Shown here in pieces: positions 1-20,089 of a DNA stretch of 64,000 nt. Source of the stretch: Candidatus Saccharimonadales bacterium (lineage in GTDB: Bacteria; Patescibacteriota; Saccharimonadia; Saccharimonadales; UBA10212); NCBI GenBank assembly GCA_040900055.1, contig JBBDZU010000007.1, forward strand, positions 104,435 through 168,434, given 5' to 3'. Under the pieces are notes generated by a model. That model had not been told where the DNA came from and did no database searches. It saw nothing but the letters and a program-made list of their open reading frames with translations. How positions within the stretch are numbered: position 1 is the stretch's first letter; every line of letters starts with the position of its first letter. Both the position numbers and the translations under genes were made by a program.

Positions 1-147
1 GTTAAAGGCATTGGCATGGGCAGAGACGCGGCTGTAAGGACCCTAACTAACCAAAAGGTCGAAATAGAAAGTCTAAAAGACGTAACTGCCATTGCCCACG
101 GCGGAGTTCGAAAAAGAAGGGCCAAGAGGAACTAGTATGGCGAGAGA
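1..147 (+). CDS. rpsK: 30S ribosomal protein S11, C-terminal fragment (gene continues upstream of window)
   Basis: Frame 1 reads ...VKGIGMGRDAAVRTLTNQKVEIESLKDVTAIAHGGVRKRRAKRN*, the typical S11 C-terminus, directly upstream of rpsD. Confidence 0.75.
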
Positions 148-754
148 TACTGAGTCAATCGTAAAGCGTTCACGTCGTGAGGGTTATGCCCTTCACCCTA
201 AGGCCCATAAGGCCTTAGTTAAGCGCAGCACGCCGCCTGGGGGCGTATCGGGCGGTAGAATGGGTCGTTCTAAGTCTTCGCAGTACGCTTTGCAGCTACG
301 CGAGAAGCAAAAAGTAAAAAGACTCTACGGACTATTAGAGCGCCAATTTGCCAAACTTATGACAGAAGCCGCAAGATCCCGTGGCCATTCCGGCTCCCAG
401 CTACTAGAATTTCTAGAACGGCGCTTAGATAACGTTATTTATAGGGCCGGCTTTGCCCCATCTAGACCGGCTGCCAGGCAGCTGGTCAGTCATGGACATT
501 TTCAACTCAACGGCCGCCGAGTTGATATTCCTTCGATTAGAGCCAAAAGTGGCGATGAAATCAGCATACTTCCTGCTAGCGCTAAGAATGAATACTTCAA
601 GAATCTAGATAGCATCAGTCCCTCGTCAGCGGCTCCAGCTTGGCTAAATGTCAACCGTAAGAAACTGACAGTTTCAGTTAGCGCCGATCCAACTCGCGAA
701 GATGCCGAACCCGATATTAAAGAGCAATTAATCGTTGAATATTATTCTCGCTAA
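137..754 (+). CDS. rpsD: 30S ribosomal protein S4
   Basis: MARDTESIVKRSRREGYALHPK... is a typical S4 N-terminus. ATG at 137 is preferred over the longer ORF-track start at 92. Sits in S11-S4-rpoA-L17 synteny. Confidence 0.9.
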   Translation: MARDTESIVKRSRREGYALHPKAHKALVKRSTPPGGVSGGRMGRSKSSQYALQLREKQKVKRLYGLLERQFAKLMTEAARSRGHSGSQLLEFLERRLDNVIYRAGFAPSRPAARQLVSHGHFQLNGRRVDIPSIRAKSGDEISILPASAKNEYFKNLDSISPSSAAPAWLNVNRKKLTVSVSADPTREDAEPDIKEQLIVEYYSR

Positions 755-773
755 GGAGGCGACGTAAAAAACT

Positions 774-1718
774 ATGAGCAAACTAATTCATACACCAATG
801 TTGTCGGAAGTCATTGATCACAGTGACTTAAGTGCTACGTTTGTAATAGAGCCGCTTCATCCAGGCTACGGAATGACTTTAGGTAACAGCTTGCGAAGAG
901 TGTTACTTTCGTCAATCGCCGGGGCAGCTGTTACCGGCTTTAGGATAGACGGCACCAGTCACGAATTTACAACCATAAAGGGTGTTAAAGAGGACGCTAT
1001 TGCCATAATGCTAAACCTTAAAGGCATTAGATTTAAGATCTTTAGCGATGAAGGCCAAACCCTTACTTTAAGCAAAAAAGGCAAAGGACAGGTTAAAGCC
1101 AAAGATATAAAACTTAACGCCGACGTGGAAATCGTCAATCCTAGCCATGTAATCTGCACCGTTGATGACGAAAAAGCCTCGGTTAATATGGAGCTGACTA
1201 TTGAAACCGGCCGCGGTTATAGGCCTCTAGACGAGCAAAGTACTGGCCGAAAGGTTAGCGACATGATAATGCTTGATGCCCTTTTTACTCCAGTGCTTAG
1301 AGTCCGCTACAAAGTCGAGAACACCCGTGTTGGCCAAATGACGGATCTTGATAAGCTGCTTATCACTATCGATACTGATGGGTCGATAACTCCCAGGGAA
1401 GCATTTGAAGAGGCTGCAGCCATCTTGGTCAACCAATACACAGCTTTAGCTGGTCAAACTAAAGTTGAAGTCGGCTCGCCACTTACTGCAGACGACGAGG
1501 CGTCCGAGACTGGGGAGGCCGACGAACCAGCTGAGCTAATGACACCAATTGAGGACCTTAACTTAACTGCTCGCACTACCAACGCGCTGGTGAACAACGA
1601 CATCCATACCATTAAAGACCTGATCTCGTTGGGCGAAGCGGAGCTTCGAGACCTTAAGGGCTTTGGCAACAAAGCATTAGACGAAGTTAAAGAAAAAATG
1701 GCCGAACTCGAGCTTTAA
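774..1718 (+). CDS. rpoA: DNA-directed RNA polymerase alpha subunit
   Basis: N-terminal domain (VIEPLHPGYGMTLGNSLRRVLLSSI) and C-terminal domain (LNLTARTTNALVNNDIHTIKDL) signatures. SD aaggagg lies upstream. Confidence 0.9.
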   Translation: MSKLIHTPMLSEVIDHSDLSATFVIEPLHPGYGMTLGNSLRRVLLSSIAGAAVTGFRIDGTSHEFTTIKGVKEDAIAIMLNLKGIRFKIFSDEGQTLTLSKKGKGQVKAKDIKLNADVEIVNPSHVICTVDDEKASVNMELTIETGRGYRPLDEQSTGRKVSDMIMLDALFTPVLRVRYKVENTRVGQMTDLDKLLITIDTDGSITPREAFEEAAAILVNQYTALAGQTKVEVGSPLTADDEASETGEADEPAELMTPIEDLNLTARTTNALVNNDIHTIKDLISLGEAELRDLKGFGNKALDEVKEKMAELEL

Positions 1719-1720
1719 AT

Positions 1721-2182
1721 ATGAAGGACAGAAAGTTTAATCGTCAAAAAGACCAGCGAAGGGCTCTAATAAAGGGTCTGGCTGATTCATTGGTTATTAA
1801 TGAGTCAATTGAGACTACTCTCCCCAAAGCTAAAGCCGTAGCTCGCTATACCGAGAGACTTATTACTAAAGCCAAAAAAGGCGACCTAAGCAGTAGACGT
1901 CAAATAGTTAAAAGTCTTAACACGCTGGAGGCTGCTGGAAAATTGATAGACGAACTGGCCCCTAAGCTTGGCGGTAGAAGTAGCGGGCACCTAAGGGTTA
2001 AGCGGACGGGTATTCGAAGAGGAGACGACACCCAGTTGGCAAGAGTTAGTTTCGTGGATGATTTGAAAAAAATTGTTCAAACTAATACCGAAAAAGCACC
2101 TAAAAAGCCGGCCATAGCTGTTAAAAAGCCCAAGGTGGCGACAAAGACACCTGCAAGATCGACAAAAACAACCAAGAAATAG
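1721..2182 (+). CDS. rplQ: 50S ribosomal protein L17 with Lys/Ala/Pro-rich C-terminal tail
   Basis: RKFNRQKDQRRALIKGLADSLVINESIETTLPKAKAV is the L17 signature. Synteny after rpoA. Confidence 0.9.
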   Translation: MKDRKFNRQKDQRRALIKGLADSLVINESIETTLPKAKAVARYTERLITKAKKGDLSSRRQIVKSLNTLEAAGKLIDELAPKLGGRSSGHLRVKRTGIRRGDDTQLARVSFVDDLKKIVQTNTEKAPKKPAIAVKKPKVATKTPARSTKTTKK

Positions 2183-2184
2183 CC

Positions 2185-2628
2185 ATGAAGACCTACAGCT
2201 TAAAACCCACCGATATAAAACGCCAATGGTATTTGTTAGATGCCGCCCAAGCTTCTATGGGGCGGGTGGCCTCCTTTGCCGCTAGGCTGTTGCTAGGCAA
2301 AGATAAGCCCAACCAATCGCCACATATGGATAGTGGCGACTTTGTAGTAATAATTAACGCCAAAGATACAAAGTTCACTGGAAATAAAGGTGAGAAGAAA
2401 ATATATTACCGCCATAGTGGTTTCCCCGGTGGTCTAAAACAAAAAACACTTAATGAAGCAATGGCCCAGGATCCAACCTACGCATTACGTCATGCTATTC
2501 GCGGCATGCTGCCGCCCAACAAATTACGAACCGAGCGCTTAAAACGCTTGAAGATCTATCCTGAGGCCGAACACCCTCACCGCGGCCAGAATCCTAAAGA
2601 GATATCACTTCCGCAGGAGGCTAAGTAG
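2185..2628 (+). CDS. rplM: 50S ribosomal protein L13
   Basis: MKTYSLKPTDIKRQWYLLDA...VVIINAKD is the L13 signature. Confidence 0.9.
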   Translation: MKTYSLKPTDIKRQWYLLDAAQASMGRVASFAARLLLGKDKPNQSPHMDSGDFVVIINAKDTKFTGNKGEKKIYYRHSGFPGGLKQKTLNEAMAQDPTYALRHAIRGMLPPNKLRTERLKRLKIYPEAEHPHRGQNPKEISLPQEAK

Positions 2629-3029
2629 TGTCAGCTCAAAGCTACTTTTACGCCTTAGGCCGGCGCAAGCGAGCTACCGCCAGGGTCCGGGTAACTGCTT
2701 CTAAGGGTTCCTTTTTAATTAACGATAAGCCAGTTAACAATTATTTAGCCGGCAGCAAGTATTTACAGACCAAACTCTTTAAGCCATTTAATGTTTTAGA
2801 ACTAGACCCCGACAATTACACAGTCAGCGTTAAAACCAGCGGTGGTGGACAGTCCAGCCAAGTGGATGCCATTAGCTTAGGCGTTGCCAAAGCCCTGGTA
2901 GAGATAAACGAAGACTTTCGGCCTACCCTTAGAAAGGCCGAGCTGCTCGGCCGTGATCCCAGAAAGAAAGAGCGTAAAAAATTTGGGCTTCGTGGAGCCC
3001 GTAAAAAACGCCAGTTCACCAAACGCTAA
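2628..3029 (+). CDS. rpsI: 30S ribosomal protein S9 (GTG start overlapping the rplM stop by 1 nt)
   Basis: YFYALGRRKRATARVRV...GLRGARKKRQFTKR is the S9 signature. Confidence 0.9.
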   Translation: MSAQSYFYALGRRKRATARVRVTASKGSFLINDKPVNNYLAGSKYLQTKLFKPFNVLELDPDNYTVSVKTSGGGQSSQVDAISLGVAKALVEINEDFRPTLRKAELLGRDPRKKERKKFGLRGARKKRQFTKR

Positions 3030-3072
3030 TCTAAGATAGTCGATAAGCCTCTTTGGGCTATAATTGTTGTTA

Positions 3073-4113
3073 ATGAGCAAGGAAGTTGTTTTAACAGGAT
3101 TACGCTCTAATGATGAGTTTCACCTGGGCAATTATTTGGGAGCCATCCTGCCGATGGTTGAGCTTCAGAAAAAGCATGCCGGGGAATATCAGCTTCACAT
3201 GTTCATTCCGGATCTTCACAGTTTTACTACACCGATTGATCACAGCAAACTATTTGCCCAAACCATCGATAATTTAAAGGTCTTCGTAGCTGCTGGGCTC
3301 GACATTAATAATCCAAATACCCTTATATATCGGCAAAGCTACATCCCGGCCCATTCCGAAATGACCTGGATTTTGAACTGTTTTTCATACTTCGGCGAGC
3401 TGTCTAGAATGACTGAGTTCAAAGATAAGTCATCTAAGTCAGATAGCGAGAATATTTCTGCTGGCCTGTTTACTTATCCTGTGTTGATGGCGGCTGATAT
3501 CTTGCTTTACGACGCCAAATGGATACCAGTTGGCGACGACCAGCGCCAACACCTAGAGTTTACGCGAAACCTAGCTATTCGCATGAACAACAAGTTCGGA
3601 AAGCTGTTTGTAGTCCCAGAAGATAGCCCCAAGCAACAAAAATTTTCCAACAGAACCGAGTCGGTGCGAATTCGGTCGCTACGAAACCCAGACAAGAAAA
3701 TGAGTAAGTCGATAGAGGACCCAGCCGGTACGATATTACTATCCGATACACCCGAGGCTGCCTCCAAGAAGGTAATGGAAGCAACTACCGACTCGGTAGG
3801 AGTCGTACATTACGACTGGGAAAAGCAGCCCGGTATAACAAACCTTATGCAGATACTTGACTTGTTAAATAATTCAGCGGGCATTGCTAAAAAGTGGGAA
3901 GGCAAAACTAGCTACGGCGACCTCAAGACCGAAGTAGCCTCAGCCGTCAATGACTTCATGCGTGGACTGCAAAGCAAGCTAGCCCAAATTGACGAAGCTA
4001 AGCTTATAAAGAAATTAGAAAAAGACGAAGAAACCATGAGCCAACTGGCTAGTGCCAAATTGCTCAAAGTCCAACAAGCCGTAGGTCTAAGGCCAAAAGC
4101 CATAAAGCACTGA
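3073..4113 (+). CDS. trpS: Tryptophan--tRNA ligase
   Basis: Class I HIGH-like motif (FHLGNYLG) and KMSKS motif are present, with TrpS-like length. ATG 3073 is preferred over TTG 3064. Confidence 0.85.
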   Translation: MSKEVVLTGLRSNDEFHLGNYLGAILPMVELQKKHAGEYQLHMFIPDLHSFTTPIDHSKLFAQTIDNLKVFVAAGLDINNPNTLIYRQSYIPAHSEMTWILNCFSYFGELSRMTEFKDKSSKSDSENISAGLFTYPVLMAADILLYDAKWIPVGDDQRQHLEFTRNLAIRMNNKFGKLFVVPEDSPKQQKFSNRTESVRIRSLRNPDKKMSKSIEDPAGTILLSDTPEAASKKVMEATTDSVGVVHYDWEKQPGITNLMQILDLLNNSAGIAKKWEGKTSYGDLKTEVASAVNDFMRGLQSKLAQIDEAKLIKKLEKDEETMSQLASAKLLKVQQAVGLRPKAIKH

Positions 4114-4994
4114 TGCAGGAGTTCTTGGCATCCAAAGCCGACAACGGCCAAAGAGCCGATGTAGTAGTCGCTACCAAGTACCCGGAATTTACCCGGTCAT
4201 CCTTAGAGACTTTGTTCGATAAAAAAATGGTCCGTCTTGGCAACCTGCCCATAAAACCATCCAAGAAGATTGCCGCTGGCGATAAGTTAATAATCGACGA
4301 AAGTTACCTACGCATAAAACCACTGCCGATAAAATTGCCGATTATCTATGAAGATAATGACGTAATTGTAGTTAATAAGCCGGCTGGCATTTTAACTCAT
4401 TCTAAAGGCGCCATAAACTTTGAAGCTACGGTGGCTAGCTTTATCGCATCCAAAATTAACGATAAGGCGATGACTGGCAACCGGGCAGGTATTGTGCATC
4501 GTTTAGATAGAGCCACAAGCGGTGTGATTATCTGCGCCAAGAACTTAAAGTCGTTAACGCTGCTTCAAAGGCAATTTGCTAAAAGAAAAACCAAGAAAAC
4601 CTACTTGGCTATTGTTGAAGGCAGGGTCTCACCGCCTGTAGCCATAATCGACGTCCCCATAGAGCGTAACCCAAAAAACCCCAGGTCGTTTAAAGTCGGT
4701 GCTAAAGGGCGTCAGGCTCAAACACGTTATAAGACTATAAAAACATTTGACGGCCCTTTGGGTTCCTACACCTATTTGGAGGTTTCTCCAATTACAGGGC
4801 GGACTCATCAAATCCGGGTGCATTTGGCCTATCTAAAGCACCCAATAGTAGGAGATAATGTCTACGGATCTGTCGGCGAGCACCTACTATTACACGCTGC
4901 TTCGCTTGAAATTACTTTGCCAAGCAAAGAACGTAAACGCTTCACTGCTGCCATCCCGAAACAATTTAAAGAGTTCATAAACGCACATGCCTAA
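4113..4994 (+). CDS. RluA-family (RluD-like) 23S rRNA pseudouridine synthase with S4-like N-terminal domain
   Basis: HRLDRATSGVIICAK catalytic-Asp motif and VVNKPAGI motif. Confidence 0.8.
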   Translation: MQEFLASKADNGQRADVVVATKYPEFTRSSLETLFDKKMVRLGNLPIKPSKKIAAGDKLIIDESYLRIKPLPIKLPIIYEDNDVIVVNKPAGILTHSKGAINFEATVASFIASKINDKAMTGNRAGIVHRLDRATSGVIICAKNLKSLTLLQRQFAKRKTKKTYLAIVEGRVSPPVAIIDVPIERNPKNPRSFKVGAKGRQAQTRYKTIKTFDGPLGSYTYLEVSPITGRTHQIRVHLAYLKHPIVGDNVYGSVGEHLLLHAASLEITLPSKERKRFTAAIPKQFKEFINAHA

Positions 4995-5868
4995 GGATAT
5001 GTTGCTCAATCCACAAACCGCCTTAGCCGTTAAGAATTACCTTAGCGCGCCCTCGCATGCCTTGCTAATTTGTGGACCAGCTGGAGCCGGTAAAGCTTAT
5101 CTTGCCAAGCTGATTAGCGCCCAGCTTCTTAAAGTGTCGCCTCAGAAAGTTCTAAGCCACCCATCCGTTATTCATTTGACAAAGCCGGACGATAAGCAGG
5201 AAATTGCTATCGACGAAGTTAGAAGGCTAATTCGTACACTTAGGTTAAAAGCCCCGGGCGACGCAGATGTTAGGCGAGTTGTTTTGGTAGAGGACGCTAA
5301 TTTTCTTAGTCTGCCTGCCCAAAACGCTCTACTCAAAATCCTAGAAGAGCCAGATTTACAGACAGTCTTCCTTCTAACTTCGCCCTCTGAAACTTACGTC
5401 TTACCTACTACCGCTTCCAGAGCTCAGAAATTAATTGTCCATCCCGTCTCTCTTGCCCAATCCCTTAAGCATTACGACGCTAGACACTCCAAAGCGTCCG
5501 TTGAAAGCTCTTGGAGGCTCAGCGGTGGGCAAGCTGGCCTGCTAGACGCTTTATTAGAAAACCAATCCGAGCATCCTCTAAAAAAAGCTGTTGACTTAGC
5601 TAAATCTTGGCTTGGTCAGTCAAGATACGAGAGGCTATTATTTTTTGATAAATTAGCCAGCAATAAAATAGAGCTCGCTTATTTTATAGAAGGCCTCAGT
5701 AAGGTCTTGGCCGCACTTCATCATAGCTATATTGCAAAAGGAGGCTCTAAACCAGCCACTGCGCTGCTGCATTCGCGTAAACTAGTTGACGAAGCCGGAA
5801 GCGCACTAGACGTAAACGTTAACCCTAAGCTGGTTGGCCTATATTTAGCAACTCACCTCAAGGTGTAG
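4987..5868 (+). CDS. holB: DNA polymerase III delta-prime subunit-like AAA+ protein
   Basis: LLICGPAGAGKAYLAK Walker A motif and a clamp-loader-like box VII region. Delta-prime size. Confidence 0.7.
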   Translation: MPKDMLLNPQTALAVKNYLSAPSHALLICGPAGAGKAYLAKLISAQLLKVSPQKVLSHPSVIHLTKPDDKQEIAIDEVRRLIRTLRLKAPGDADVRRVVLVEDANFLSLPAQNALLKILEEPDLQTVFLLTSPSETYVLPTTASRAQKLIVHPVSLAQSLKHYDARHSKASVESSWRLSGGQAGLLDALLENQSEHPLKKAVDLAKSWLGQSRYERLLFFDKLASNKIELAYFIEGLSKVLAALHHSYIAKGGSKPATALLHSRKLVDEAGSALDVNVNPKLVGLYLATHLKV

Positions 5869-5889
5869 GTTTGCTATAATAACCTTCGT

Positions 5890-6543
5890 ATGTACGCCTT
5901 AGCGCTATTAGTATTGTTAGCATATTTTGTTTATAGGCACGCTCGTCCTTCTGAGCACGAGATGATCGTTATCCCCCGGCGGCTTGGTGCAAGGCTAACT
6001 AAACTTTGGGAAATCGCACACTACGGCATGCGCGAAAATAGGCTACTTAGAGCCGAGAAAGCCTTACTGACTATCTTAAAGATTGACGAGAAAAACGCCG
6101 CTGCCTATAACCGTCTGGGCATCTTGTACGCTAAACAACGCGAATATAAGGATGCTATCGATTGTTTTGAAATCGCCAGCAGTATCGAGCCTACGGCTTC
6201 GTCTTTGCATAACCTCGGGCTTATTTATTACGAAACAGAAAACTACGAAAAATCAGCCGCAGCTTTCGAACAGGCTCTCAAGCTAGAAGACACTCTAGCC
6301 GCCCGGCATATTGCCTACGCTAAAGTCCAAGAGAAGTTAGGCAACGAAAAGCTAGCCTTAGCGCAGCTACAAAAGGCCGTCGGGCTAGAGCCTAATCCGG
6401 AATCCTATAATTTGCTAATAAAAGCCTACGAGGTCAACGGTATGGTTGAAGAGGCAAGGGAAGCTCAAAGAAAAGCCGGTAAACTAGCCTTGCCCGCAGG
6501 ACGCCTAAAGCGAGTGCTTCGGCCCCGACGTGTAGTTATCTAA
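5890..6543 (+). CDS. TPR-repeat protein with N-terminal TM helix
   Basis: N-terminal hydrophobic segment followed by repeated AxxYxxLGxxY-type TPR units. Confidence 0.65.
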   Translation: MYALALLVLLAYFVYRHARPSEHEMIVIPRRLGARLTKLWEIAHYGMRENRLLRAEKALLTILKIDEKNAAAYNRLGILYAKQREYKDAIDCFEIASSIEPTASSLHNLGLIYYETENYEKSAAAFEQALKLEDTLAARHIAYAKVQEKLGNEKLALAQLQKAVGLEPNPESYNLLIKAYEVNGMVEEAREAQRKAGKLALPAGRLKRVLRPRRVVI

Positions 6544-9023: not shown

Positions 9024-9704
9024 GTGGTAGTATCAATTGTAATGACCACCAAAATTGCCCTAGCTAAACCAATTTTACTCTGTCTTTATGGTTTTCCTGG
9101 TTCGGGCAAGAGTTTTGTAGCTAGAAACCTAGCTTCAACCTTAGAAATAGCGCTCGTTAGTGCCGACAGGGTAAGAAGCGAGTTATTTAGGCAACCTCGC
9201 TACGACGATCAAGAAAACGCCATTGTTACTCACCTAATGAACTATATGACTGAGGAATTTTTAAATGCTGGTGTCGGCGTAGTTTATGACGCTAATGCAG
9301 TAAGAGTAGCCCAAAGGCACAGGTTGAGGGAACTGGCCAAGAATCACCGTGCAGACTACCTGCTAGTTTGGCTGCAAATCGACGTTGAGAGCGCCTTTAC
9401 TCGTACTCAAAAACGTGACAGACGTACCGCCGACGATAAACATGCCGAGCCTCAAACCCGCCTAACCTTTGATAAACAGCTTAGTTTAATGCAAAATCCT
9501 AAAGACGAAGATTATCTGGTCATCAGCGGTAAGCATGCCTTCGTAACTCAAAAAAATGCGATCATCGACAGACTTTATAAGATGGGCTTTATCCCTAGCG
9601 AGACCGTACAGCATAATGTCGCAAAACCTGGACTGGTTAACCTTATACCTAACCCGCAACTTGACCAAGTGGACCTAAGCCGCCGTAGCATCTCAGTCGA
9701 ATAG
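9024..9704 (+). CDS. P-loop NTPase, AAA_33 / zeta-toxin-like predicted kinase (GTG 9024 or ATG 9042 start)
   Basis: Walker A motif LYGFPGSGKSF and Walker B-like VGVVYDAN. Size of about 220 aa. Confidence 0.65.
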   Translation: MVVSIVMTTKIALAKPILLCLYGFPGSGKSFVARNLASTLEIALVSADRVRSELFRQPRYDDQENAIVTHLMNYMTEEFLNAGVGVVYDANAVRVAQRHRLRELAKNHRADYLLVWLQIDVESAFTRTQKRDRRTADDKHAEPQTRLTFDKQLSLMQNPKDEDYLVISGKHAFVTQKNAIIDRLYKMGFIPSETVQHNVAKPGLVNLIPNPQLDQVDLSRRSISVE

Positions 9705-9705
9705 T

Positions 9706-10416
9706 ATGTCAACTAGAGCGGTCTATGTGGACGGAGTTGGGGATATATTACTTACCAAACGCAAAGGTTCCAAAAATGCCCGATTAAGTATCAGGGCCGA
9801 CGGCCGCGTGCGAGTGAACTTGCCCGCCTGGTCGTCATATGCTGCTGGCTTAGCCTTTGCCAAAGCTCATAAGCGCTGGATAATAAGCCATCGCCCTTAC
9901 TTTCAAAGGCCCGTCCTAAAAAACGGTGACCAATTTTATGGTAAGTACCATCTAAAATTTAACTACACCCTAGGGGCTCAAAGAATCACCGCCACGTTAG
10001 GCCCTAGAAGTATTGTTATATCAAGCAGCCTAGCGTATGACCACCCTAGTGTTCAAAATAAAGCTTATCAAAGCTGCGAAAAAGCCCTTAGGGCCGAAGC
10101 CAAAGTTATATTGCCTAAACGCCTAGAACAATTATCTAGGCAGTATGGCTTTAAGTGCCAAGATGTTAAAATCCGCAAACTGACAGCTAGATGGGGAAGC
10201 TGTTCAAAAGATAAAAAAATTACCTTAAGCTATTACTTATTGCAGTTATCTCCCGATCTTCGTGATTACGTTATCTTGCATGAGTTAGTACACACCAAGC
10301 ACTTAAACCATGGTCCGGACTTTTGGCAGCTTTTCCAAAGCATCTATCCCCAAGCAAACCAAAGTAGAAAGCACATCCGGAATTTTAGGCCGCGACTAGC
10401 GCCGCTAACTACTTAA
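9706..10416 (+). CDS. DUF45 / YgjP-like zinc metallohydrolase (HExxH)
   Basis: YVILHELVHTKHLNHGPDFW is the HExxH plus H..FW signature of the YgjP/DUF45 family. Start is 2 nt after the upstream stop. Confidence 0.7.
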   Translation: MSTRAVYVDGVGDILLTKRKGSKNARLSIRADGRVRVNLPAWSSYAAGLAFAKAHKRWIISHRPYFQRPVLKNGDQFYGKYHLKFNYTLGAQRITATLGPRSIVISSSLAYDHPSVQNKAYQSCEKALRAEAKVILPKRLEQLSRQYGFKCQDVKIRKLTARWGSCSKDKKITLSYYLLQLSPDLRDYVILHELVHTKHLNHGPDFWQLFQSIYPQANQSRKHIRNFRPRLAPLTT

Positions 10417-10500: not shown

Positions 10501-10839
10501 ATGGCGACTAATTCGTCGAGTGCTAAAAAACGCATTCGAAAAACCGCACCTTCACCAGATGAGGGTAAATCTAAACACGAAAGGCAAGCAAACAGCCGTT
10601 TGCAGGGGGTTTTACCTCAAGTTATGCTGCCTGTAAGCGTTAAGCGAGTCCTAAATAAGCTAATTCCCAGCTATTTTATTAGGTCTTGGCGTGAAGTCAG
10701 AAAAGTTAGTTGGCCAAATCGTAAAGAAACCTGGCGGCTAACACTGGCGGTATTCATCTTTGCTGTAATCTTTGGGGCTTTAGCCTTCGGCGTCGATAAG
10801 GGCTTAGACATACTTTTTAGAGACCTAGTATTAGAATAA
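10501..10839 (+). CDS. secE: Preprotein translocase SecE (long basic N-terminal region)
   Basis: C-terminal EVRKVSWPNRKETWRLTLAVFIFAVIFGALAFGVD is the SecE signature. Directly upstream of nusG. Confidence 0.8.
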   Translation: MATNSSSAKKRIRKTAPSPDEGKSKHERQANSRLQGVLPQVMLPVSVKRVLNKLIPSYFIRSWREVRKVSWPNRKETWRLTLAVFIFAVIFGALAFGVDKGLDILFRDLVLE

Positions 10840-10848
10840 GGAACTTTT

Positions 10849-11391
10849 ATGAACAAACGCTATGACTCCTCTAAACAATGGTATGCCATCCATACTTATA
10901 GCGGCTACGAAGAAAAAGTAGCGGAATCTATTCGCCAGAGGGCCGAATCGTTAGATATGGGCGATAAGATTTTTCAGGTCTTGGTTCCTAAAGAAAAAAT
11001 GATTGAGATTAAAAACGGTAAGCGTCGCGTAGTCGAAAAACGCATCTTTCAAGGTTATGTGTTGGTAGAAATGAAATTATCTGAAGATGCTTGGTACATC
11101 GTGCGAAACACCCCCAATGTAACTGGCTTTGTAGGCACCGGCACTGACCCCACGCCGGTTGAACCCGATGAAATTGCTAAAATTATGAAGCGAATGGGCC
11201 GCGACGAGCCTAAGCACAAGTTCGATTATCGGGTTGGTGAGGTCGTTAATATAATTGATGGACCGTTTAAAGGTTTTGATGGAGCCATTAACGAGATAGA
11301 CGCCCAGAAAGGAAAGCTTAAAGTGCTGGTTAATATGTTTGGCCGCGAAACGCCGGTTGAGCTTGATGGCCTACAGGTAAAGAGGGTTTAA
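10849..11391 (+). CDS. nusG: Transcription termination/antitermination factor NusG
   Basis: NGN domain (WYAIHTYSGYEEKV) and KOW domain (GEVVNIIDGPFKGFDGAINEID). Confidence 0.9.
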   Translation: MNKRYDSSKQWYAIHTYSGYEEKVAESIRQRAESLDMGDKIFQVLVPKEKMIEIKNGKRRVVEKRIFQGYVLVEMKLSEDAWYIVRNTPNVTGFVGTGTDPTPVEPDEIAKIMKRMGRDEPKHKFDYRVGEVVNIIDGPFKGFDGAINEIDAQKGKLKVLVNMFGRETPVELDGLQVKRV

Positions 11392-11392
11392 C

Positions 11393-11848
11393 ATGGCCAA
11401 GGAAGTTAAAGCCAATATCAAGATGAAAATCCGGGCTGGGCAGGCCAGTCCAGCGCCGCCAGTGGGCTCCATACTCGGCCAATACGGTGTCAATATGATG
11501 GACTTTATTAATCCCTTTAACGAACAGACCAAAGACCGCATGGGACAGATGGTTACTGTCCATGTAACCATATACGATGACAGGACCATGGTCTGGCGGG
11601 TAGTCGGCACCCCTACTGACGAACTGATTTTATCCGCTCTTAAAGTAGAGAAAGGGTCAGCAGAACCAAACAAGACAAAGCTAGATGAGAAGTTGTCTAG
11701 TTCCCAGCTGAGCGAAATCGCGGAAAGTAAGGCCAGCGATATGAACACAACGGATATCGAATCTGTGAAAAAAATGGTAGCCGGTACAGCCCGCAGCATG
11801 GGTGTAGAAATAGATAAGACGGGAGAAAGTGATAATGCCCACACCTAA
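11393..11848 (+). CDS. rplK: 50S ribosomal protein L11
   Basis: IKMKIRAGQASPAPPVGSILGQYGVNMMDF is the L11 signature. Confidence 0.9.
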   Translation: MAKEVKANIKMKIRAGQASPAPPVGSILGQYGVNMMDFINPFNEQTKDRMGQMVTVHVTIYDDRTMVWRVVGTPTDELILSALKVEKGSAEPNKTKLDEKLSSSQLSEIAESKASDMNTTDIESVKKMVAGTARSMGVEIDKTGESDNAHT

Positions 11849-12740
11849 AAAAGCTGAAGACCAGGCGCTTAAGCAGGCTGAGATTACCGACAAAGTTGCG
11901 CCGGCTGCAAAGAAAGTTGACTCCGCCGCTAAAGCCGGCAAAAGAAGCCCTAAGGCCGTGAGGGAGACTTCGGAAAAATTGGCTAAAAATGCTAAAAAAG
12001 CTCACGCCGGCGAGTCAGATGCTAAAGCAAAAACCGCACACAAACCTCCCCGTAGCCGGCAAGAACGGACCGGTAAAAAATATCGCGAGGTGGCTAAGCA
12101 AGTTGATAAAACTAAAGTCTACAGCCTGGCGGAAGCCGTGGATTTGGCTACTAAAACGAATCCTGTCAAGTTTGACGCTTCAGTAGAAATACATATCAAC
12201 TTAAACGTCGATCCCACGCAAGCCGACCACAATATCCGTGGCAGCCTGAACCTCCCGGCTGGCAGCGGTAAAAAAGTGGTTGTGGCTGTTTTTGTTAACG
12301 ACGAAGACGCTGCCGAGCTTAAAAAGGCCGGCGCTGATTTAGCTGGTGTATCCGAGATCTTGGCCAAGCTAGATAATAAGGAGCTTAGTTTCGATATTTT
12401 GATATCTACCCCCGAACTTATGAGCGTACTTTCCAAATATGCCAGGTTACTGGGCCCAAAAGGACTCATGCCCAATCCCAAAAGCGGAACCGTAACTTCG
12501 GATGTCAAAAAGGCTGTTTCAGAAGCTAAAGCTGGAAGAATAGAATACCGTATTGACCCAAGCGGCATAATCCATATGGCGGTCGGTAAGGTAAGTTTTG
12601 GCCAAGACAAACTGCTTAGCAACGTCGAGGTTGCTATCTCTGCGATTCGTACGTCCAAGCCGGCTAGTCTTAAAGGCCCATACGTCAAATCGGCCTATAT
12701 TAGCACCTCGATGGGACCATCAATCAAAATTACGGTCTAG
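11835..12740 (+). CDS. rplA: 50S ribosomal protein L1 with N-terminal Lys/Ala-rich extension of about 75 aa
   Basis: Core L1 begins at GKKYREVAKQVDKTKVYSLAEAVDL and ends at GPSIKI. SD GGGAG at 11821-11825 precedes ATG 11835 (GTG 11829 is also in frame). No alternative in-frame ATG lies before the core. Confidence 0.85.
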   Translation: MPTPKKAEDQALKQAEITDKVAPAAKKVDSAAKAGKRSPKAVRETSEKLAKNAKKAHAGESDAKAKTAHKPPRSRQERTGKKYREVAKQVDKTKVYSLAEAVDLATKTNPVKFDASVEIHINLNVDPTQADHNIRGSLNLPAGSGKKVVVAVFVNDEDAAELKKAGADLAGVSEILAKLDNKELSFDILISTPELMSVLSKYARLLGPKGLMPNPKSGTVTSDVKKAVSEAKAGRIEYRIDPSGIIHMAVGKVSFGQDKLLSNVEVAISAIRTSKPASLKGPYVKSAYISTSMGPSIKITV

Positions 12741-12758: not shown

Positions 12759-13463
12759 ATGGGAGTTTATAGCAACAAGCAAATCAGAGAGGCGATTAGC
12801 GCAGGTCATATTATTTGCCATCCTTTTAATCCTGCTAACGTGGCCGGTAGTAGTCTTGACGTTACCCTAGGAGAGTGGTTCTACCGCACTGAGCGCACGG
12901 GGCTAAGTGGTTTTTATAATCCTTTTGATAAGCAAGACGTTAATCGTTACTTCGCGGGGCCATATAAAGCAGAAACTCATAGGGTATGGTCCAAAGCTAA
13001 TGGCCGAACCCTTTTTGAAGGTATCCCAGCTAACCAGCCGATAATTGTGGTTAGGCCGGGAGAGAGGTTACTCGGTCATACTCATGAATTTATAGGGATT
13101 AAGGCTCCCGGCACCAGTACTCTGCAGGCTCGAAGTACGTGGGGGCGAAATGGCGTAGCGGTTTGTATAGACGCCGGCTGGGGCGACCCTGGCTACATCA
13201 ACCGCTGGACACTAGAAATCTACAATATGAATCAACACGAAAGTGTGGTCCTTCCCGTTGGCGAACGCATTGCCCAAATGGTTTTTTACGAAACCGGACC
13301 AGTCGACGGTGAATATGTAGGGCTTAGTGGCAAATACCAGCAAGCGACTAGCGCTGATCTAAAGTCCCTCGTCAAAAAGTGGGAACCGGTCCAAATGCTG
13401 CCAAAAGCTTATAAAGACGCTAGAACTAAACCCATAAAAATTGATGGTTTGGGTGGCTCATGA
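12759..13463 (+). CDS. dcd: dCTP deaminase / dUTPase-superfamily protein
   Basis: N-terminal SSLDVTLGEWFY and the central beta-barrel region resemble Dcd. The 234 aa length is somewhat longer than canonical Dcd. Confidence 0.7.
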   Translation: MGVYSNKQIREAISAGHIICHPFNPANVAGSSLDVTLGEWFYRTERTGLSGFYNPFDKQDVNRYFAGPYKAETHRVWSKANGRTLFEGIPANQPIIVVRPGERLLGHTHEFIGIKAPGTSTLQARSTWGRNGVAVCIDAGWGDPGYINRWTLEIYNMNQHESVVLPVGERIAQMVFYETGPVDGEYVGLSGKYQQATSADLKSLVKKWEPVQMLPKAYKDARTKPIKIDGLGGS

Positions 13464-15406
13464 CCGGAACTTTCATAGTCCTAGAGGGCTCTGACGGCTC
13501 AGGCAAGACCACTCAATTTAGGCTGCTCCAAGCGCGGTTAAGGGCCCTGGGGTACGATGTCGAGGTTTTTGATTTTCCCCGTTATGACCAAGATTCCAGT
13601 CACTTTATCCGCAAATACTTAAATGGTGATTACGGACGGCCTGCCGATGTTAGCCCTTATAGTGCCTCACTTTTTTATGCGCTTGACAGATTCGAGGCTG
13701 CAGCTGATATCAGAAAAACTCTGTCTGCCGGAAAAATTGTCTTATCGGATCGCTATGTTGGATCGAATATGGCCCATCAAGGTTCAAAAATCGACGCCGC
13801 AGCCCAACTTAGAGGCTATTTTGTCTGGAACGACAATTTGGAGTACAGATTACTGGGCATACCACGTCCAACTATTAGTATTTACCTGAGGGTGCCCGCA
13901 GACATCTCCTATGACTTAATGGCCAAAAGGGCCGTTCGGAGCTACACCGATAAAGTTCGTGATGGCCACGAAGCTGACTTAAACCATCTACAAAAAACCG
14001 TAAAAACTTATGATCTACTTTGTCAGCTATTCCCTAAAGACTATATTGCTATCGACTGTACAGATAATCAAAAAATACTTGGCATAGCCGAGATTAATGA
14101 CCGGATTTGGGAAGTTGTTAAGCCGTTGCTCCCAGCCAGCCGCCCCCATCGACCAAAAAGCCTAACAGTTAATATTAATGAGCCGGTAATGCCAGCGATT
14201 CATGCCAAGAAAACTGCAAAACGTGACGGGCTAACAACAAAGGGCGACAAGGTTCTAATTTTTGAGTCAAGAAATGTCAGTCTGCTGGCTTTAGCTTCCG
14301 TCATTGCTAACCCCGTTAAGCTTGAAATGACGCCATCAAAGGATTACTTTACACCCAGCTCACTACCTGCAAATCTCCAAAAATTCTACAAAGAGAGTCT
14401 GGAGCATCTTTCCAAGCTCCAAAATCAGCTAAGGGCTGGCCTGCACAAACATGACAATACTCCAAACGAACAAATACTAGCCGCAGTTGCTTCTATTAGG
14501 CCCTTGGCGTCACTTTATAACATCCGTATTTTAGCGACCCATCAAGCGGCCGGGGACTTAATTGACGAATTAGCACTAAGCAGCCTTAAAGAGGCTAGAT
14601 GGCTAGGTGATCAACTGGCAGCGGCAGCTAAAAATATGTGGCCAGCCACTCAGGCACTACGAGGCCATACTCCGCCAGAGGCTGTCCGCAAGATTATTGC
14701 CGAAATTTCTAAAAATCACTTACCGCAAAAAATCGACGGCGCTTCAGAGCCAGTCAGACTGCTTCAGGCTTTACCTCGTAATGAATTTGAGATTTTAGCC
14801 GACGGCATCTACCCATTTAGTAATCTATCTAAGAGCGATATCGAAAATGAGCTCGATAGCTGGAGCTACGAACAAAAATCGCAAGCCCTATCGGCGATAG
14901 TAGCCAAACCGACGCTGTCACGAGAGATTTGCTATAGACTCGACGCTATTTGTGACTTTTTGTCATTTCAAACTATGCGCTCAAGCAGTATCGGTTATGA
15001 TTTTAGCCTTCAGCCGCCTACACCGCGGTACGGTTACGATATGCCTAAAATTATTGAAGACGCCGGACTAGAAGATACCTTTATGGAGTGTTTTGATGAG
15101 AGTCTAAAGCTATATAGCACGCTTCAATCCAAAAGCTCCCAAGAAAACGCCAGCTACGCAACGCTTACCGGCCATAAAATTAGGATGCAGTTTAATCTTA
15201 AAGCAGCCGACTTAAGTCAAGCACTGCACAGTGGTAGCCCTAAACCAGACACTTACCTTAAGCTGCTTGAAGAAATTCAGGAAAAAGTCTCTTCTGCCCA
15301 CCCAATAATTTGGGCAAGCTTATCTAAAGGCAAGGAGAACGCCCCCATTTTAGATAAACCTAAGACACGCCGCACTCGCAGCAAAAAAAGGGTTCGACCA
15401 TCTTAA
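13460..15406 (+). CDS. tmk: Thymidylate kinase fused to a C-terminal domain of about 430 aa of unknown function, with an Arg/Lys-rich tail
   Basis: N-terminal IVLEGSDGSGKTTQ P-loop and dTMP-kinase-like first ~215 aa. The remainder has no family I can assign. The ATGA overlap with dcd indicates coupling. Confidence 0.7.
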   Translation: MTGTFIVLEGSDGSGKTTQFRLLQARLRALGYDVEVFDFPRYDQDSSHFIRKYLNGDYGRPADVSPYSASLFYALDRFEAAADIRKTLSAGKIVLSDRYVGSNMAHQGSKIDAAAQLRGYFVWNDNLEYRLLGIPRPTISIYLRVPADISYDLMAKRAVRSYTDKVRDGHEADLNHLQKTVKTYDLLCQLFPKDYIAIDCTDNQKILGIAEINDRIWEVVKPLLPASRPHRPKSLTVNINEPVMPAIHAKKTAKRDGLTTKGDKVLIFESRNVSLLALASVIANPVKLEMTPSKDYFTPSSLPANLQKFYKESLEHLSKLQNQLRAGLHKHDNTPNEQILAAVASIRPLASLYNIRILATHQAAGDLIDELALSSLKEARWLGDQLAAAAKNMWPATQALRGHTPPEAVRKIIAEISKNHLPQKIDGASEPVRLLQALPRNEFEILADGIYPFSNLSKSDIENELDSWSYEQKSQALSAIVAKPTLSREICYRLDAICDFLSFQTMRSSSIGYDFSLQPPTPRYGYDMPKIIEDAGLEDTFMECFDESLKLYSTLQSKSSQENASYATLTGHKIRMQFNLKAADLSQALHSGSPKPDTYLKLLEEIQEKVSSAHPIIWASLSKGKENAPILDKPKTRRTRSKKRVRPS

Positions 15407-15543
15407 ATTAGGAGTCTTGCCAGGGGTAGTCTTGGTATGTTAGATTAATAGAGTGAACCAAAGACAGTAGCTTCCGTCGGTTGACGGATTAATTTAGAAA
15501 AGTTAAGGCTACCGAGGTAATCTCTTGAATAGTCTTTGGTATA

Positions 15544-15571
15544 TGCCAAAGATTTTTTATTTGGCATTTTT
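15544..15571 (+). promoter_or_regulatory. AT-rich hairpin plus T-run in rplJ leader (possible L10 leader/attenuator)
   Basis: tgccaaa-gatttttta-tttggca followed by ttttt, immediately 5' of the rplJ SD. Confidence 0.3.
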
Positions 15572-16727: not shown

Positions 16728-17240
16728 ATGGCAGACATACCCGAAAAACAAATCAAGCGCCTGCGCACTTTGATAGCTGAGGCTGAAACAGCATTGGCAG
16801 CCACTAAGGAGCTGCTTATATCCTTGGTGGGAGAAGATTCGGTATTAGTCGAAAAAGTTAAGGATAAGTCACTGGGCAAAGTAATCGAAGGTGTTTTTGA
16901 CGGGCAAGCAATGGTTGGCAGCGATGGAAAAACCTATCCAGTACCCGCTAATTATGCTTCAAAGTCCAAATTAGTCCAGGGTGATATTTTGAAGCTAACC
17001 ATCGCCGACGACGGAGCCTTTATGTATAAGCAGATTGGCCCTATTCCTAGACGCCAGGTGGTAGGAGTGCTTAAGCAAAAAGATGGTCACTATTTTGTTG
17101 ATATAGACGGCAAGGAATACAGGGTTTTGTTGGCGTCGGTAACTTATTTTAAAGCCAAACCAGGCGACCAGGTTAGTGTTAACCTGCCAGAAGACACAAC
17201 TGTAGACGCCGAATGGGCCGCGCTTGAGGCGGCTCTTTAG
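16728..17240 (+). CDS. Hypothetical protein with N-terminal helix and an internal tandem beta-rich repeat
   Basis: GKTYPVPANYASKSKLVQGD and GKEYRVLLASVTYFKAKPGD are repeat units. SD is present. No family recognised. Confidence 0.5.
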   Translation: MADIPEKQIKRLRTLIAEAETALAATKELLISLVGEDSVLVEKVKDKSLGKVIEGVFDGQAMVGSDGKTYPVPANYASKSKLVQGDILKLTIADDGAFMYKQIGPIPRRQVVGVLKQKDGHYFVDIDGKEYRVLLASVTYFKAKPGDQVSVNLPEDTTVDAEWAALEAAL

Positions 17241-17309
17241 ATTCTTATTCGCTTTTAACCCTAAAACGAGGCAACTTATCGGTGCTAAAAAGCGTATAAT
17301 GATTTTGAT

Positions 17310-18725
17310 ATGAGGCAGGCTCTTTATAGAAAATACCGCTCAAAGAGTTTTGATGAAGTGGTTGGTCAAGAGCACATTACTGAAACTCTAAAAAATGCCT
17401 TATCGGCAGGTAAGCTCAGCCACGCCTACTTGTTTAGTGGTCCCAGGGGGGTGGGCAAAACTTCAGTTGCTAGGATTTTAGCCCACGAGGCCAACCAGTT
17501 CCCCTACAAGGACGAGACCGTTCATTTAGACATTATAGAAATTGACGCTGCGAGTAACCGGCGGATTGATGAGATTAGAGACCTTAGGGAAAAAGTCCAC
17601 ATGGCGCCAACGACCGGTAGGTATAAGGTTTATATAATTGATGAAGTCCATATGCTTACTAAAGAGGCTTTTAACGCCCTCTTAAAAACTCTAGAGGAGC
17701 CACCAAGCCACTGTTTATTCGTTTTAGCTACTACCGAAGCCCACAAACTACCCGAAACTATTATCAGCCGAACCCAGCGGTTTGAATTTAAGCAGGTTCC
17801 AGCTGACCAAATTGCCGCTCATCTTAAAAAAATCGCTAAACGTGAGAAGATCGATATATCTGATGAAGCTTTAATTTTGCTGGCAGAACATAGCGGGGGA
17901 AGTTTTCGTGACAGCATCGGCTTATTAGACCAATTAAGTTCGGCTTACAGCAAAATTTCTGAAAGTGGAGCGCGTCAAACACTAGGACTTCCGCCGCAAG
18001 AAGCTATAAATAACTTAATTAGCTTAATCACCGATGGTGATGCTCTAAGATCACTCTCGTCCCTTACACAGTTGCAAGAACAGGGCATTAACGCTGTCGC
18101 AATCTCTAAAATGCTTGGTTCAAAACTTAGACAGCAAGCCACAACTCACCCCTTAGAAGCTTGGATTTTGCCCTTTTTAAAGCAGCTACTGGCAGTAACT
18201 GCTCATCCCAAGCCCTATGACTACCTAGAAATAGCTATTTTAGAAGCGGCCAGTCAAAATCTGCAAAGCCCAAGTAATGACCCGGTTTCCTTAGCTACAG
18301 TAGACGAGTACGAAAAGTTGTCTAAGCCGGCCAAGGTCGATAAGCCGCGGCAACCAGCCAGCCCTAAAGCCGGCAGCTTTACGGAGAATGACTGGGGAGA
18401 GATTTTAGAGGTGGTAAAAACTAAGGCGACCGCTCTGTATAGAGCTCTTCGCCTGGCTATTCCAAGAATGGAAGCTAACACTCTCACCCTCTATTTCCAG
18501 TTTCCTTTGCATCAAAAAAAGGCTAATCAGCTAAAGCAGCGAGAATTGATAGGACGACTTATTGAAGAAAAATATAGCGTTAAGCTAGAGGTTAAGTGTG
18601 CGATTGATAAGGACTTATTCGAATCGCCATCAGACGCAGATGTGGCTGGGCTGGTCCCAGATGATGAAGCGTCGCTTAATACCATTAGCAATATCTTCGG
18701 TCATACCGAGGTGTTAGAATCATAA
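17310..18725 (+). CDS. dnaX: DNA polymerase III gamma/tau subunit (short, gamma-like)
   Basis: GPRGVGKTS Walker A, DEVHML Walker B and SRTQRF sensor motifs are present. The 471 aa length lacks a long tau C-terminus. Confidence 0.85.
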   Translation: MRQALYRKYRSKSFDEVVGQEHITETLKNALSAGKLSHAYLFSGPRGVGKTSVARILAHEANQFPYKDETVHLDIIEIDAASNRRIDEIRDLREKVHMAPTTGRYKVYIIDEVHMLTKEAFNALLKTLEEPPSHCLFVLATTEAHKLPETIISRTQRFEFKQVPADQIAAHLKKIAKREKIDISDEALILLAEHSGGSFRDSIGLLDQLSSAYSKISESGARQTLGLPPQEAINNLISLITDGDALRSLSSLTQLQEQGINAVAISKMLGSKLRQQATTHPLEAWILPFLKQLLAVTAHPKPYDYLEIAILEAASQNLQSPSNDPVSLATVDEYEKLSKPAKVDKPRQPASPKAGSFTENDWGEILEVVKTKATALYRALRLAIPRMEANTLTLYFQFPLHQKKANQLKQRELIGRLIEEKYSVKLEVKCAIDKDLFESPSDADVAGLVPDDEASLNTISNIFGHTEVLES

Positions 18726-18733
18726 AACAAAAG

Positions 18734-20089
18734 ATGGCTAAAACTAATACACCGCCGCAAAACCTAGACATTGAAGCCAGCCTGCTGGGCAGCCTACTAA
18801 TCGACAGCGATTCCTTTGTTAAAATTGGAGATATGTTAAAACCGGATGATTTTTTTGATGAACGCCATCGGACAATTTTTAACTCGATGCGCAAGTTATT
18901 TGACAGGCGAAGCCCGGTAGATATATTGACCTTGAGTGAGCAGTTAAAAAAAGCTGGGCAATTAGATAATGTTGGCGGCGCTAGTTACCTCACTGAGCTG
19001 ACAAATACTGTACCGACGGCCGCCCACCTTGAGCAATATGCCGAAATTGTAGCAGACAAATCGATTAGGCGGCGCTTAATTAGCGCCAGCAAAGACATTG
19101 CTGACATTGGCTTTGACGAAGACAAAAGTTTGTCGGAACTAATCGAAGAAGCCGAAACCAGAATTTTTGAAGTTAGCCAACGCCACGTTAGACAAGATAT
19201 TACTAGCTTGGAGTCAATTTTAGGTGATAGTTTTGATCGCTTAGATGACTTACACCGGCACAAGGGTGGACTACGTGGAATTCCAACTGGACTGCGGGAT
19301 TTAGATAAGCTACTAGCGGGCCTTCAGCGGTCTGATTTAGTAGTCATAGCTTCGCGACCTTCTATGGGTAAAACTGCCTTGATGCTCAATATTGCCCTCG
19401 ATATAGCCACCAAGGCTAACATGGGCTCTGTTTTAATCTTTAGCCTAGAAATGAGCAAAGAACAGCTTGTCGATAGGTTATTAGCCGCCGAAGCTGGTGT
19501 TGACGCTTGGAAACTTAGAACGGGAGACGGTCTAACCGACCAAGATTTTGAAGCTTTGAGCGCTGGTATGGGCGAGCTAGCCGAAGCGCCAATCTTTATT
19601 GATGATACGTCGGGCATAACGGTCAGTGATTTACGAACAAAAGCCCGCCGCCTCCACCACCAAAACCCTTTGGCTGCCATTATGGTGGATTACCTTCAAC
19701 TAATGAGCGGTGGATCGCGTTTTGCTACAGTGGCCAACCGCGTCCAGGAAATATCCGAAATAAGCCGCTCCTTAAAAATTCTAGCTCGGGAATTAAATGT
19801 GCCGGTAGTGGCCTTAAGTCAGCTAAGCCGATCGGTAGAGAGTCGCAGCCCGCAGATACCTCAGCTAGCTGACCTTAGAGAGTCAGGATCCATTGAGCAA
19901 GATGCCGACATTGTGGCTTTTTTGTACCGCGAAGAATATTACAACCCGGAAACTGAGAGGCAAAATGCCACGGACGTTTATATAAAGAAGCACCGTAATG
20001 GGCCTGTCGGTCATATTGAACTTTATTTTGATATGCATAAGCAGCGTTTCCGAGACCTGGACACTAAGCACGACGAACCTTTTGAATAG
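18734..20089 (+). CDS. dnaB: Replicative DNA helicase DnaB
   Basis: The N-terminal domain ASLLGSLL, Walker A SRPSMGKTAL and the RecA-like C-terminal domain are present. Confidence 0.9.
   Translation: MAKTNTPPQNLDIEASLLGSLLIDSDSFVKIGDMLKPDDFFDERHRTIFNSMRKLFDRRSPVDILTLSEQLKKAGQLDNVGGASYLTELTNTVPTAAHLEQYAEIVADKSIRRRLISASKDIADIGFDEDKSLSELIEEAETRIFEVSQRHVRQDITSLESILGDSFDRLDDLHRHKGGLRGIPTGLRDLDKLLAGLQRSDLVVIASRPSMGKTALMLNIALDIATKANMGSVLIFSLEMSKEQLVDRLLAAEAGVDAWKLRTGDGLTDQDFEALSAGMGELAEAPIFIDDTSGITVSDLRTKARRLHHQNPLAAIMVDYLQLMSGGSRFATVANRVQEISEISRSLKILARELNVPVVALSQLSRSVESRSPQIPQLADLRESGSIEQDADIVAFLYREEYYNPETERQNATDVYIKKHRNGPVGHIELYFDMHKQRFRDLDTKHDEPFE

Follow-up and report, generated by a model that had tools for sequence, protein, structure and literature searches.

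A predicted thymidylate kinase–tandem ThyX fusion encoded beside dcd in the ribosomal protein gene cluster of Saccharibacteria

We analysed a 64-kb stretch of the genome of a Candidatus Saccharimonadales bacterium (contig JBBDZU010000007.1), hereafter the window, in which two adjoining genes lie between the ribosomal protein genes rplA and rplJ. The first, dcd, encodes a 234-aa dCTP deaminase, and the second a 648-aa protein that starts with a thymidylate kinase (Tmk) domain. In the rest of the 648-aa protein, two decayed copies of ThyX, the flavin-dependent thymidylate synthase, are predicted to stand in tandem ahead of a Lys/Arg-rich tail, and this ThyX part is almost certainly inactive. We consider it probable that the two genes constitute a housekeeping operon of the thymidylate pathway in which the ThyX module is dead and likely serves as a scaffold for Tmk. 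All coordinates refer to the window, in which the genes from secE to rplL and the thyA-folA pair are on the + strand, and comparisons were made with Pfam, NCBIfam, PADLOC, Rfam, the PDB and Foldseek.

Identity of the C-terminal region

The C-terminal 424 residues taken alone match no Pfam family even at E=10, Thy1 included, and no PDB sequence, as a single-sequence PDB search returned Tmk structures only. An earlier note on this DNA, which could recognise no fold in the region, was therefore fair as a reading of one sequence. A word-indexed search retrieved seven proteins, six of them relatives that are all Tmk fusions of 571–676 aa and have the motifs WPRNEFE, WxYxQK, QxxTPRYGYxxP, FDESLxLYS, YxxLxGHKxR and HP in common. 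When a profile built from the C-terminal region alone was used in an exhaustive HMM search, 1,169 representative clusters passed E<=1e-3 and 358 passed E<=1e-30, with family matches at E values of 1e-65 to 1e-120. Nearly every complete protein in the best 150 clusters is a fusion of Tmk with this C-terminal region, 600–800 aa in length, and a minority of these 150 carries DLQRHRxVDDLxWQxLTPRYGY, in which the ThyX signature RHR...S/T-x-RY can be read. Ten better-preserved or intermediate members show two Pfam Thy1 (PF02511) stretches each, with E values down to 5e-40, and eight of the ten with a double Thy1 also match Thymidylate_kin.

A profile of 112 family sequences matched the ThyX of M. 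tuberculosis (3gwc at 7e-10; 3gwc and 2af6 both at about 1e-9) and that of C. glutamicum (1e-6), and hhalign aligned repeat 1 to a fragment of M. tuberculosis ThyX with a probability of 93.8%. The AlphaFold2 model built from the 112-sequence alignment (pLDDT 92.4, pTM 0.87) contains two similar alpha/beta units. When this model was compared with the PDB by Foldseek, the top 50 matches were all ThyX/FDTS (flavin-dependent thymidylate synthase) structures at a probability of 1.00, with target-normalised TM scores of about 0.57–0.71. Taken together, the profile, Thy1, hhalign, model and Foldseek results indicate that a tandem ThyX (Thy1) module makes up the C-terminal ~390 residues, as predicted from sequence and model. 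For the window protein itself the Thy1 homology runs indirectly, through family intermediates.

Four parts can thus be delimited in the 648-aa protein (13460–15406). The Tmk domain (residues 1–225; 13460–14134) is followed by a disordered linker (residues 226–261; 14135–14242), which has a pLDDT of about 30 in the full-length model and differs among the aligned proteins in both length and sequence. Next come ThyX-like repeat 1 (residues ~262–422; 14243–14725), delimited by hhalign, the alignment with intact relatives and the model, and ThyX-like repeat 2 (residues ~428–623; 14741–15328). The Lys/Arg-rich tail (residues 624–648; 15329–15403) was read from the sequence and has a low pLDDT. The hint of ThyX-type motifs that the earlier note had offered with hedging was well placed, since MRSSS...TPRYGY is what remains of the RHR...SxRY signature of ThyX. 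That note had also reasoned that the gene would be ordinary if its C-terminal region resolved into a known common Tmk accessory domain, and this is largely borne out, as the region resolves into a known domain, ThyX.

Catalytic residues in intact and decayed ThyX modules

A total of 189 distinct full-length family members were aligned and their positions mapped to the active-site residues of M. tuberculosis ThyX. Proteins that keep RHR were taken as the intact type (n=70), and 56 proteins, the window's included, constitute a degenerate clade. In repeat 1 of the intact proteins, R97, S105, R107, Y108 and R172 are near-invariant and W-G replaces R95-H96. In repeat 2, R95-H96-R97, T105, R107, Y108, N188, R190, H194 and R199 are near-invariant and Q replaces R172. 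Judged by these residues, most of the sampled Saccharibacteria species retain the ThyX catalytic set, divided between the two repeats. A division of this kind is the pattern expected from tandem duplication and subfunctionalisation of a homo-tetrameric enzyme with inter-subunit active sites. It is very probable that the RHR-keeping fusions combine ThyX and Tmk activities in bifunctional enzymes, and NCBI names one of the intact-type proteins 'FAD-dependent thymidylate synthase'.

The catalytic positions are scrambled in the 56-protein clade, where only the T/R/Y of repeat 2 survives. In the window protein, S508-S509-S510 replaces the RHR of repeat 2 and T521-P-R523-Y524 is kept, while K, A, Q and G stand at N188, R190, H194 and R199, so that the NxR..H..LR block is lost. 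The position of R172 holds A in repeat 1 and S/Y in repeat 2. Repeat 1 has no EQSTRY, both halves of the signature being gone, and lacks about 110 N-terminal residues that intact relatives possess. Altogether 116 columns that are at least 90% conserved in the intact proteins are lost in the degenerate clade, and 34 core columns of the ThyX module are still conserved there in common with the intact proteins. In a neighbour-joining tree computed from the Tmk columns only, 56 of the 56 degenerate proteins fall in one clade of 60, which argues that the decay of ThyX occurred once. Members of the clade differ freely at the catalytic positions, a signature of relaxed selection. The ThyX part of the window protein is a decayed and almost certainly inactive descendant of a Tmk-ThyX-ThyX fusion that is otherwise intact.

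The window also encodes a canonical thymidylate synthase and dihydrofolate reductase. Both thyA (39035–39952; PF00303, 7e-121) and folA (39952–40446; PF00186, 3e-58) are intact, and the thyA-folA pair that the earlier note had placed at 39035–40446 is thereby confirmed. No second tmk, dcd/dut paralogue or thyX was found within the 64 kb.

Several points weigh against a dead ThyX module in a housekeeping operon. T521/R523/Y524, R575 and H572 remain conserved, so that some nucleotide binding or unconventional activity is possible, and the presumed catalytic death is read from the residues. It is also possible that a separate tmk, thyX or dut lies beyond the 64-kb window. In four loci (L016, L018, L024 and L047) thyA adjoins intact-type fusions, which means that having ThyA is not sufficient to explain the decay of ThyX. 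The presence of ThyA was considered as the cause of that decay and kept as a permissive condition only, because intact-type loci also have thyA-folA.

Instead of serving as a scaffold, the ThyX-derived module and its Lys/Arg tail might have acquired a new job, either tethering Tmk to DNA, RNA, the replisome or the ribosome, or regulating the kinase by sensing dUMP/dTMP. We regard such a change of function as unlikely, although several observations favour it. The fold is kept with high confidence, the 34 core columns are conserved at about 30–40% pairwise identity, and the degenerate proteins have a single origin on the Tmk columns. T521, R523 and Y524, the equivalents of the dUMP-contacting Ser/Arg/Tyr of ThyX, occur in 49, 53 and 43 of the 56 clade members, respectively. 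The basic tail KPKTRRTRSKKRVRPS, present just as the earlier note described it, points the same way: the last 25 residues hold 7–12 K/R in 14 of 15 degenerate-type locus proteins and 0–6 in the intact type, none of which has such a tail. However, only five conserved columns are specific to the clade, all of them conservative hydrophobic or K/R changes, and they make up no new motif. Most of the dUMP-phosphate ligands (RHR, R172 and R199) are gone. The tail may, moreover, reflect a general habit of this genome, as basic low-complexity extensions are present on L1 and SecE too. RplA has a Lys/Ala-rich basic N-terminal extension of about 100 aa ahead of its L1 domain (11829–12150), and SecE has a basic N-terminal extension as well (10501–10620). 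The joint proposition that the window's module is a pseudoenzyme with a new role and that Saccharibacteria carry an undescribed bifunctional ThyX-Tmk built as a subfunctionalised pseudo-tetramer appears rather doubtful.

It is very improbable that the C-terminal module has remained active as a flavin-dependent thymidylate synthase by means of non-canonical residues, which would make the window protein a functional bifunctional ThyX-Tmk. The retained ThyX fold, the Ser(Thr)/Arg/Tyr triad of repeat 2 and the very probable bifunctionality of the intact relatives are compatible with activity. Against it stand SSS in place of RHR, the substitutions at N188/R190/H194/R199, the loss of R172 from both repeats and the deletion of the N-terminal ~110 residues of repeat 1, together with the free variation of the catalytic positions within the clade, the failure of Thy1 to match even at E=10 and the complete thyA-folA pair.

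The kinase, the deaminase and their place in the gene cluster

The Tmk domain has remained strongly conserved. PF02223 covers residues 8–203 of the fusion (1.4e-21; 77.4 bits against a cut-off of 27), which bears out the assignment of the N-terminal part as Tmk in the earlier note, and among solved structures M. tuberculosis Tmk (1g3u, 2e-20) comes closest. The scores against TIGR00041 (71.8 bits, cut-off 83.25) and NF005923 (122.4 bits, cut-off 193) fall under the thresholds of these NCBIfam models; the N-domain is divergent and embedded in a longer protein. In the 56-protein clade, 74 Tmk columns are at least 90% conserved, including G10/D12/G13/G15/K16/T18 of the P-loop and D76-R77. The corresponding motifs of the window protein are LEGSDGSGKTTQ (P-loop GxxGxGK[ST]) and LSDRYVGSN (DR[YF]). 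An NCBI entry under the name 'MAG: thymidylate kinase [Candidatus Saccharimonadales bacterium]' matches the whole 648-aa protein with 100% identity, which places the window in a Saccharibacteria (TM7, Patescibacteria) genome. Among the intact-type fusions, two clearly distinct Tmk N-domains were observed when P0060, P0077, P0085, P0065 and P0134 were compared with P0063, P0072 and P0144: one is M. tuberculosis-like (FDFPQY..SSYFV) and the other is of the ordinary bacterial type. Such a difference points to replacement of the domain or to a very deep split among the fusions.

Dcd (12759–13463) matches PF22769 (7e-33; 114 bits, cut-off 27), in agreement with its earlier identification as a Dcd-like dCTP deaminase, and scores 84.5 bits against TIGR02274, under the equivalog cut-off of 92.8. 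In the PDB it is matched best by 4xjc (8e-13), by M. tuberculosis 2qxx and by 1ogh, the dUMP-forming enzyme of M. jannaschii. The Dcd stretches ARSTWGRNG and TLEIYN align with RSSVGRLG and TLELFN of 4xjc, which correspond to the Ser/Arg loop and the catalytic Glu, and the C-terminus is about 35 residues longer than in solved Dcd enzymes. By these criteria Dcd is predicted to be a dCTP deaminase of the dUTPase-like trimeric family, and it may be of the dUMP-forming bifunctional type.

The two genes stand in the order secE (10501–10839), nusG (10849–11391), rplK (ribosomal protein L11, 11393–11848), rplA (L1, 11829–12740; Pfam Ribosomal_L1, 3e-55, residues 109–297), dcd, the Tmk/ThyX fusion gene, rplJ (L10, 15581–16108; Pfam Ribosomal_L10, 6e-21) and rplL (L7/L12, 16124–16540; Pfam Ribosomal_L12, 7.5e-27; L12_N, 5e-13). 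The assignment of rplK comes from its open reading frame, from Ribosomal_L11 at the homologous position in three related loci (L001, L002 and L006) and from tblastn synteny. ATGA at 13460–13463, read from the sequence, overlaps the stop of dcd with the start of the fusion gene; both reading frames lie between rplA and rplJ where the earlier note had put them. The GC content around the pair is 0.477 and the flanks are indistinguishable from it.

An L10 leader RNA (RF00557) was found at 15440–15568, full length over positions 1–138 of the model, scoring 50 bits where the gathering cut-off is 44. A terminator-like hairpin (15531–15554), followed by a T run, lies within it. The true start of rplJ is most likely ATG 15581, which has GGAG 6 nt upstream, rather than TTG 15536 of the mechanical ORF. 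As the L10 leader precedes rplJ, the dcd-fusion pair sits at the boundary of the rplKA and rplJL units and inside neither. The pair is appended to the rplKA unit, and the autoregulated rplJL unit is left intact. The earlier description of the pair as lying between rplA and rplJ stands, with this refinement to its position. A promoter-like site before the leader (15417–15446; TTGCCA-18-TAGATT with an upstream TG) is weak evidence for a promoter, and such sites are no more numerous in this region than in shuffles.

The surrounding genes were also inspected. Downstream, rplL is not followed by rpoB/rpoC; instead a conserved 170-aa ORF (16728–17240), for which no Pfam match was found, precedes dnaX and dnaB (16728–20089 for the three together). 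The region upstream of secE (9024–10416) encodes an AAA_33/Zeta-toxin-like P-loop kinase and a YgjP-like metallopeptidase, which are kept in L001, L002 and L006. In relatives, but not in the window, a PAS-HisKA histidine kinase gene separates YgjP from secE.

A scan of one genome per species gave 150 loci, 80 of which were retrieved with 10 kb on either side. Nearly all of the 80 are labelled Saccharibacteria, and most show the order nusG-rplK-(rplA)-dcd-tmk/thyX-(L10 leader)-rplJ-rplL-orf170-dnaX. In the tblastn synteny table rplA is under-counted, and the gene tables of L001, L002 and L006 show L1 in place. The order rplL-orf170-dnaX-dnaB is likewise found again in most of these loci. Architecture and position thus recur across the lineage, a check that the earlier note had itself proposed, and the arrangement that it called atypical is not atypical for this organism. 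In some loci, thyA and/or folA stand directly upstream of the fusion and dcd is absent (L003/L004, L016, L018, L024, L025, L030, L038, L047 and L059), and in four loci folA stands ahead of dcd. The occupation of the rplA-rplJ slot by dcd or by thyA/folA marks the slot as one that houses thymidylate genes throughout the lineage. In the degenerate-type loci L003/L004 (positions 1–6000), the place of dcd between rplA and tmk is taken by a block encoding a glycosyltransferase, ThyA, a dCMP deaminase, a HIT protein, a CTP_transf_like protein and an APH-type kinase. Four entries (L010, L039, L072 and P0077) are labelled Babeliales, Limnocylindria, Burkholderiaceae or Dormibacteraeota and yet have the Saccharibacteria-type fusion. 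As L010, L039 and L072 show Saccharibacteria synteny, these contigs were probably mis-binned in metagenome-assembled genomes.

Anti-phage deaminase defence enzymes known from the literature have the zinc cytidine-deaminase fold. The suggestion in the earlier note that dcd and the kinase gene might form an anti-phage nucleotide-depletion system is hardly tenable: the likeness, a dCTP deaminase beside a kinase-like protein, is superficial, and the weak, generic matches of Tmk to the candidate PADLOC kinase components PDC-M51B (1e-8) and VakA (9e-7) are set against a Dcd that has no PADLOC match at E<=0.1 and belongs to the dUTPase-like, housekeeping family PF22769 and not to that fold, a fixed position in the ribosomal protein cluster in most of the ~80 species loci that is neither patchy nor island-like, the biosynthetic context given by thyA-folA or a dCMP deaminase in place of dcd in some relatives, and a GC content equal to that of the flanks.

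Proposed pathway and comparison with known systems

In the proposed pathway, Dcd would convert dCTP to a deoxyuridine nucleotide, either dUTP or dUMP, as suggested by the alignment of its loop and Glu with those of solved enzymes. Species of the intact type would then hold the route dCTP to dUMP to dTMP to dTDP in one operon. In the clade of the window, the ThyX module, which has lost the FAD/dUMP-binding residues and shows relaxed constraint, would make no dTMP, and ThyA with FolA, both genes being intact, would make it instead. The 648-aa protein would be the dTMP kinase of the cell, given the strong conservation of its Tmk domain. The ThyX-derived module, which has gained a basic C-terminal tail, would persist without catalysis as a folded body under constraint, most likely because Tmk needs it as a scaffold for dimerisation or stability.

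No description of a Tmk-ThyX fusion or of a ThyX pseudoenzyme was found in the literature searched, where a paper on Dcd and ThyX in amoebae offered background only, and databases label such proteins piecemeal. The components and their chemistry are known; the Tmk plus tandem-ThyX architecture, the divided catalytic set and the decayed clade are new. A 430-residue region that matched no Pfam family and was labelled 'thymidylate kinase' or 'hypothetical' becomes a defined evolutionary object. Saccharibacteria would carry a thymidylate synthase and a thymidylate kinase on one chain beside dcd, in a compact dCTP-to-dTDP operon within the ribosomal protein cluster. The decayed clade would offer a clean natural example in which one enzyme domain of a fusion degenerates into a pseudoenzyme, the partner domain is kept under selection and ThyA can step in. 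This clade would be wrongly scored by annotation pipelines as being without a ThyX homologue, and intact relatives may be mis-scored as plain ThyX or plain Tmk. If the module did have a new role, the pseudoenzyme would anchor or regulate the only dTMP kinase of epibionts with tiny genomes, and an undescribed bifunctional ThyX-Tmk would, if real, be a lineage-specific handle for drugs or physiology.

The homology of the window module to ThyX/FDTS (PF02511; T. maritima TM0449, M. tuberculosis Rv2754c) is reached via the intermediates, and repeat 2 keeps the Ser/Thr-x-Arg-Tyr of these enzymes. Unlike them, the module is a tandem duplication in one chain behind Tmk, and the window clade lacks the equivalents of RHR, R172 and N188/R190/H194/R199, has a truncated repeat 1 and gives no Pfam Thy1 score. 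The kinase part has the P-loop and the DR(Y/F) motif in common with Tmk of the M. tuberculosis type (1g3u; NF005923), whose solved chain of 214 aa has no C-terminal module, and the window protein stays under the NCBIfam cut-offs. Dcd belongs to the same Pfam family as the dCTP deaminase-dUTPases 1ogh and 2qxx of M. jannaschii and M. tuberculosis and has their RSxxGRxG and TLExxN stretches, but differs in its ~35 additional C-terminal residues and its sub-cut-off TIGR02274 score.

The nearest counterparts are the intact Tmk-ThyX-ThyX fusions (for example P0063, P0085 and P0077), which share with the window protein the domain order, the position after dcd and before rplJ, and the 34 core columns. 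They are about 130 aa longer than the degenerate proteins (median 778 vs 650 aa), possess the full catalytic set divided between the repeats and end in ...LTRLAAERYTQFKL, whereas the window clade ends in the Lys/Arg tail. Consecutive enzymes of the thymidylate cycle are also fused in one chain in the DHFR-TS of protozoa and plants. There ThyA is joined to DHFR and both domains are active; the sequence is presumably unrelated to that of the window fusion, and the principle of fusion is the same.

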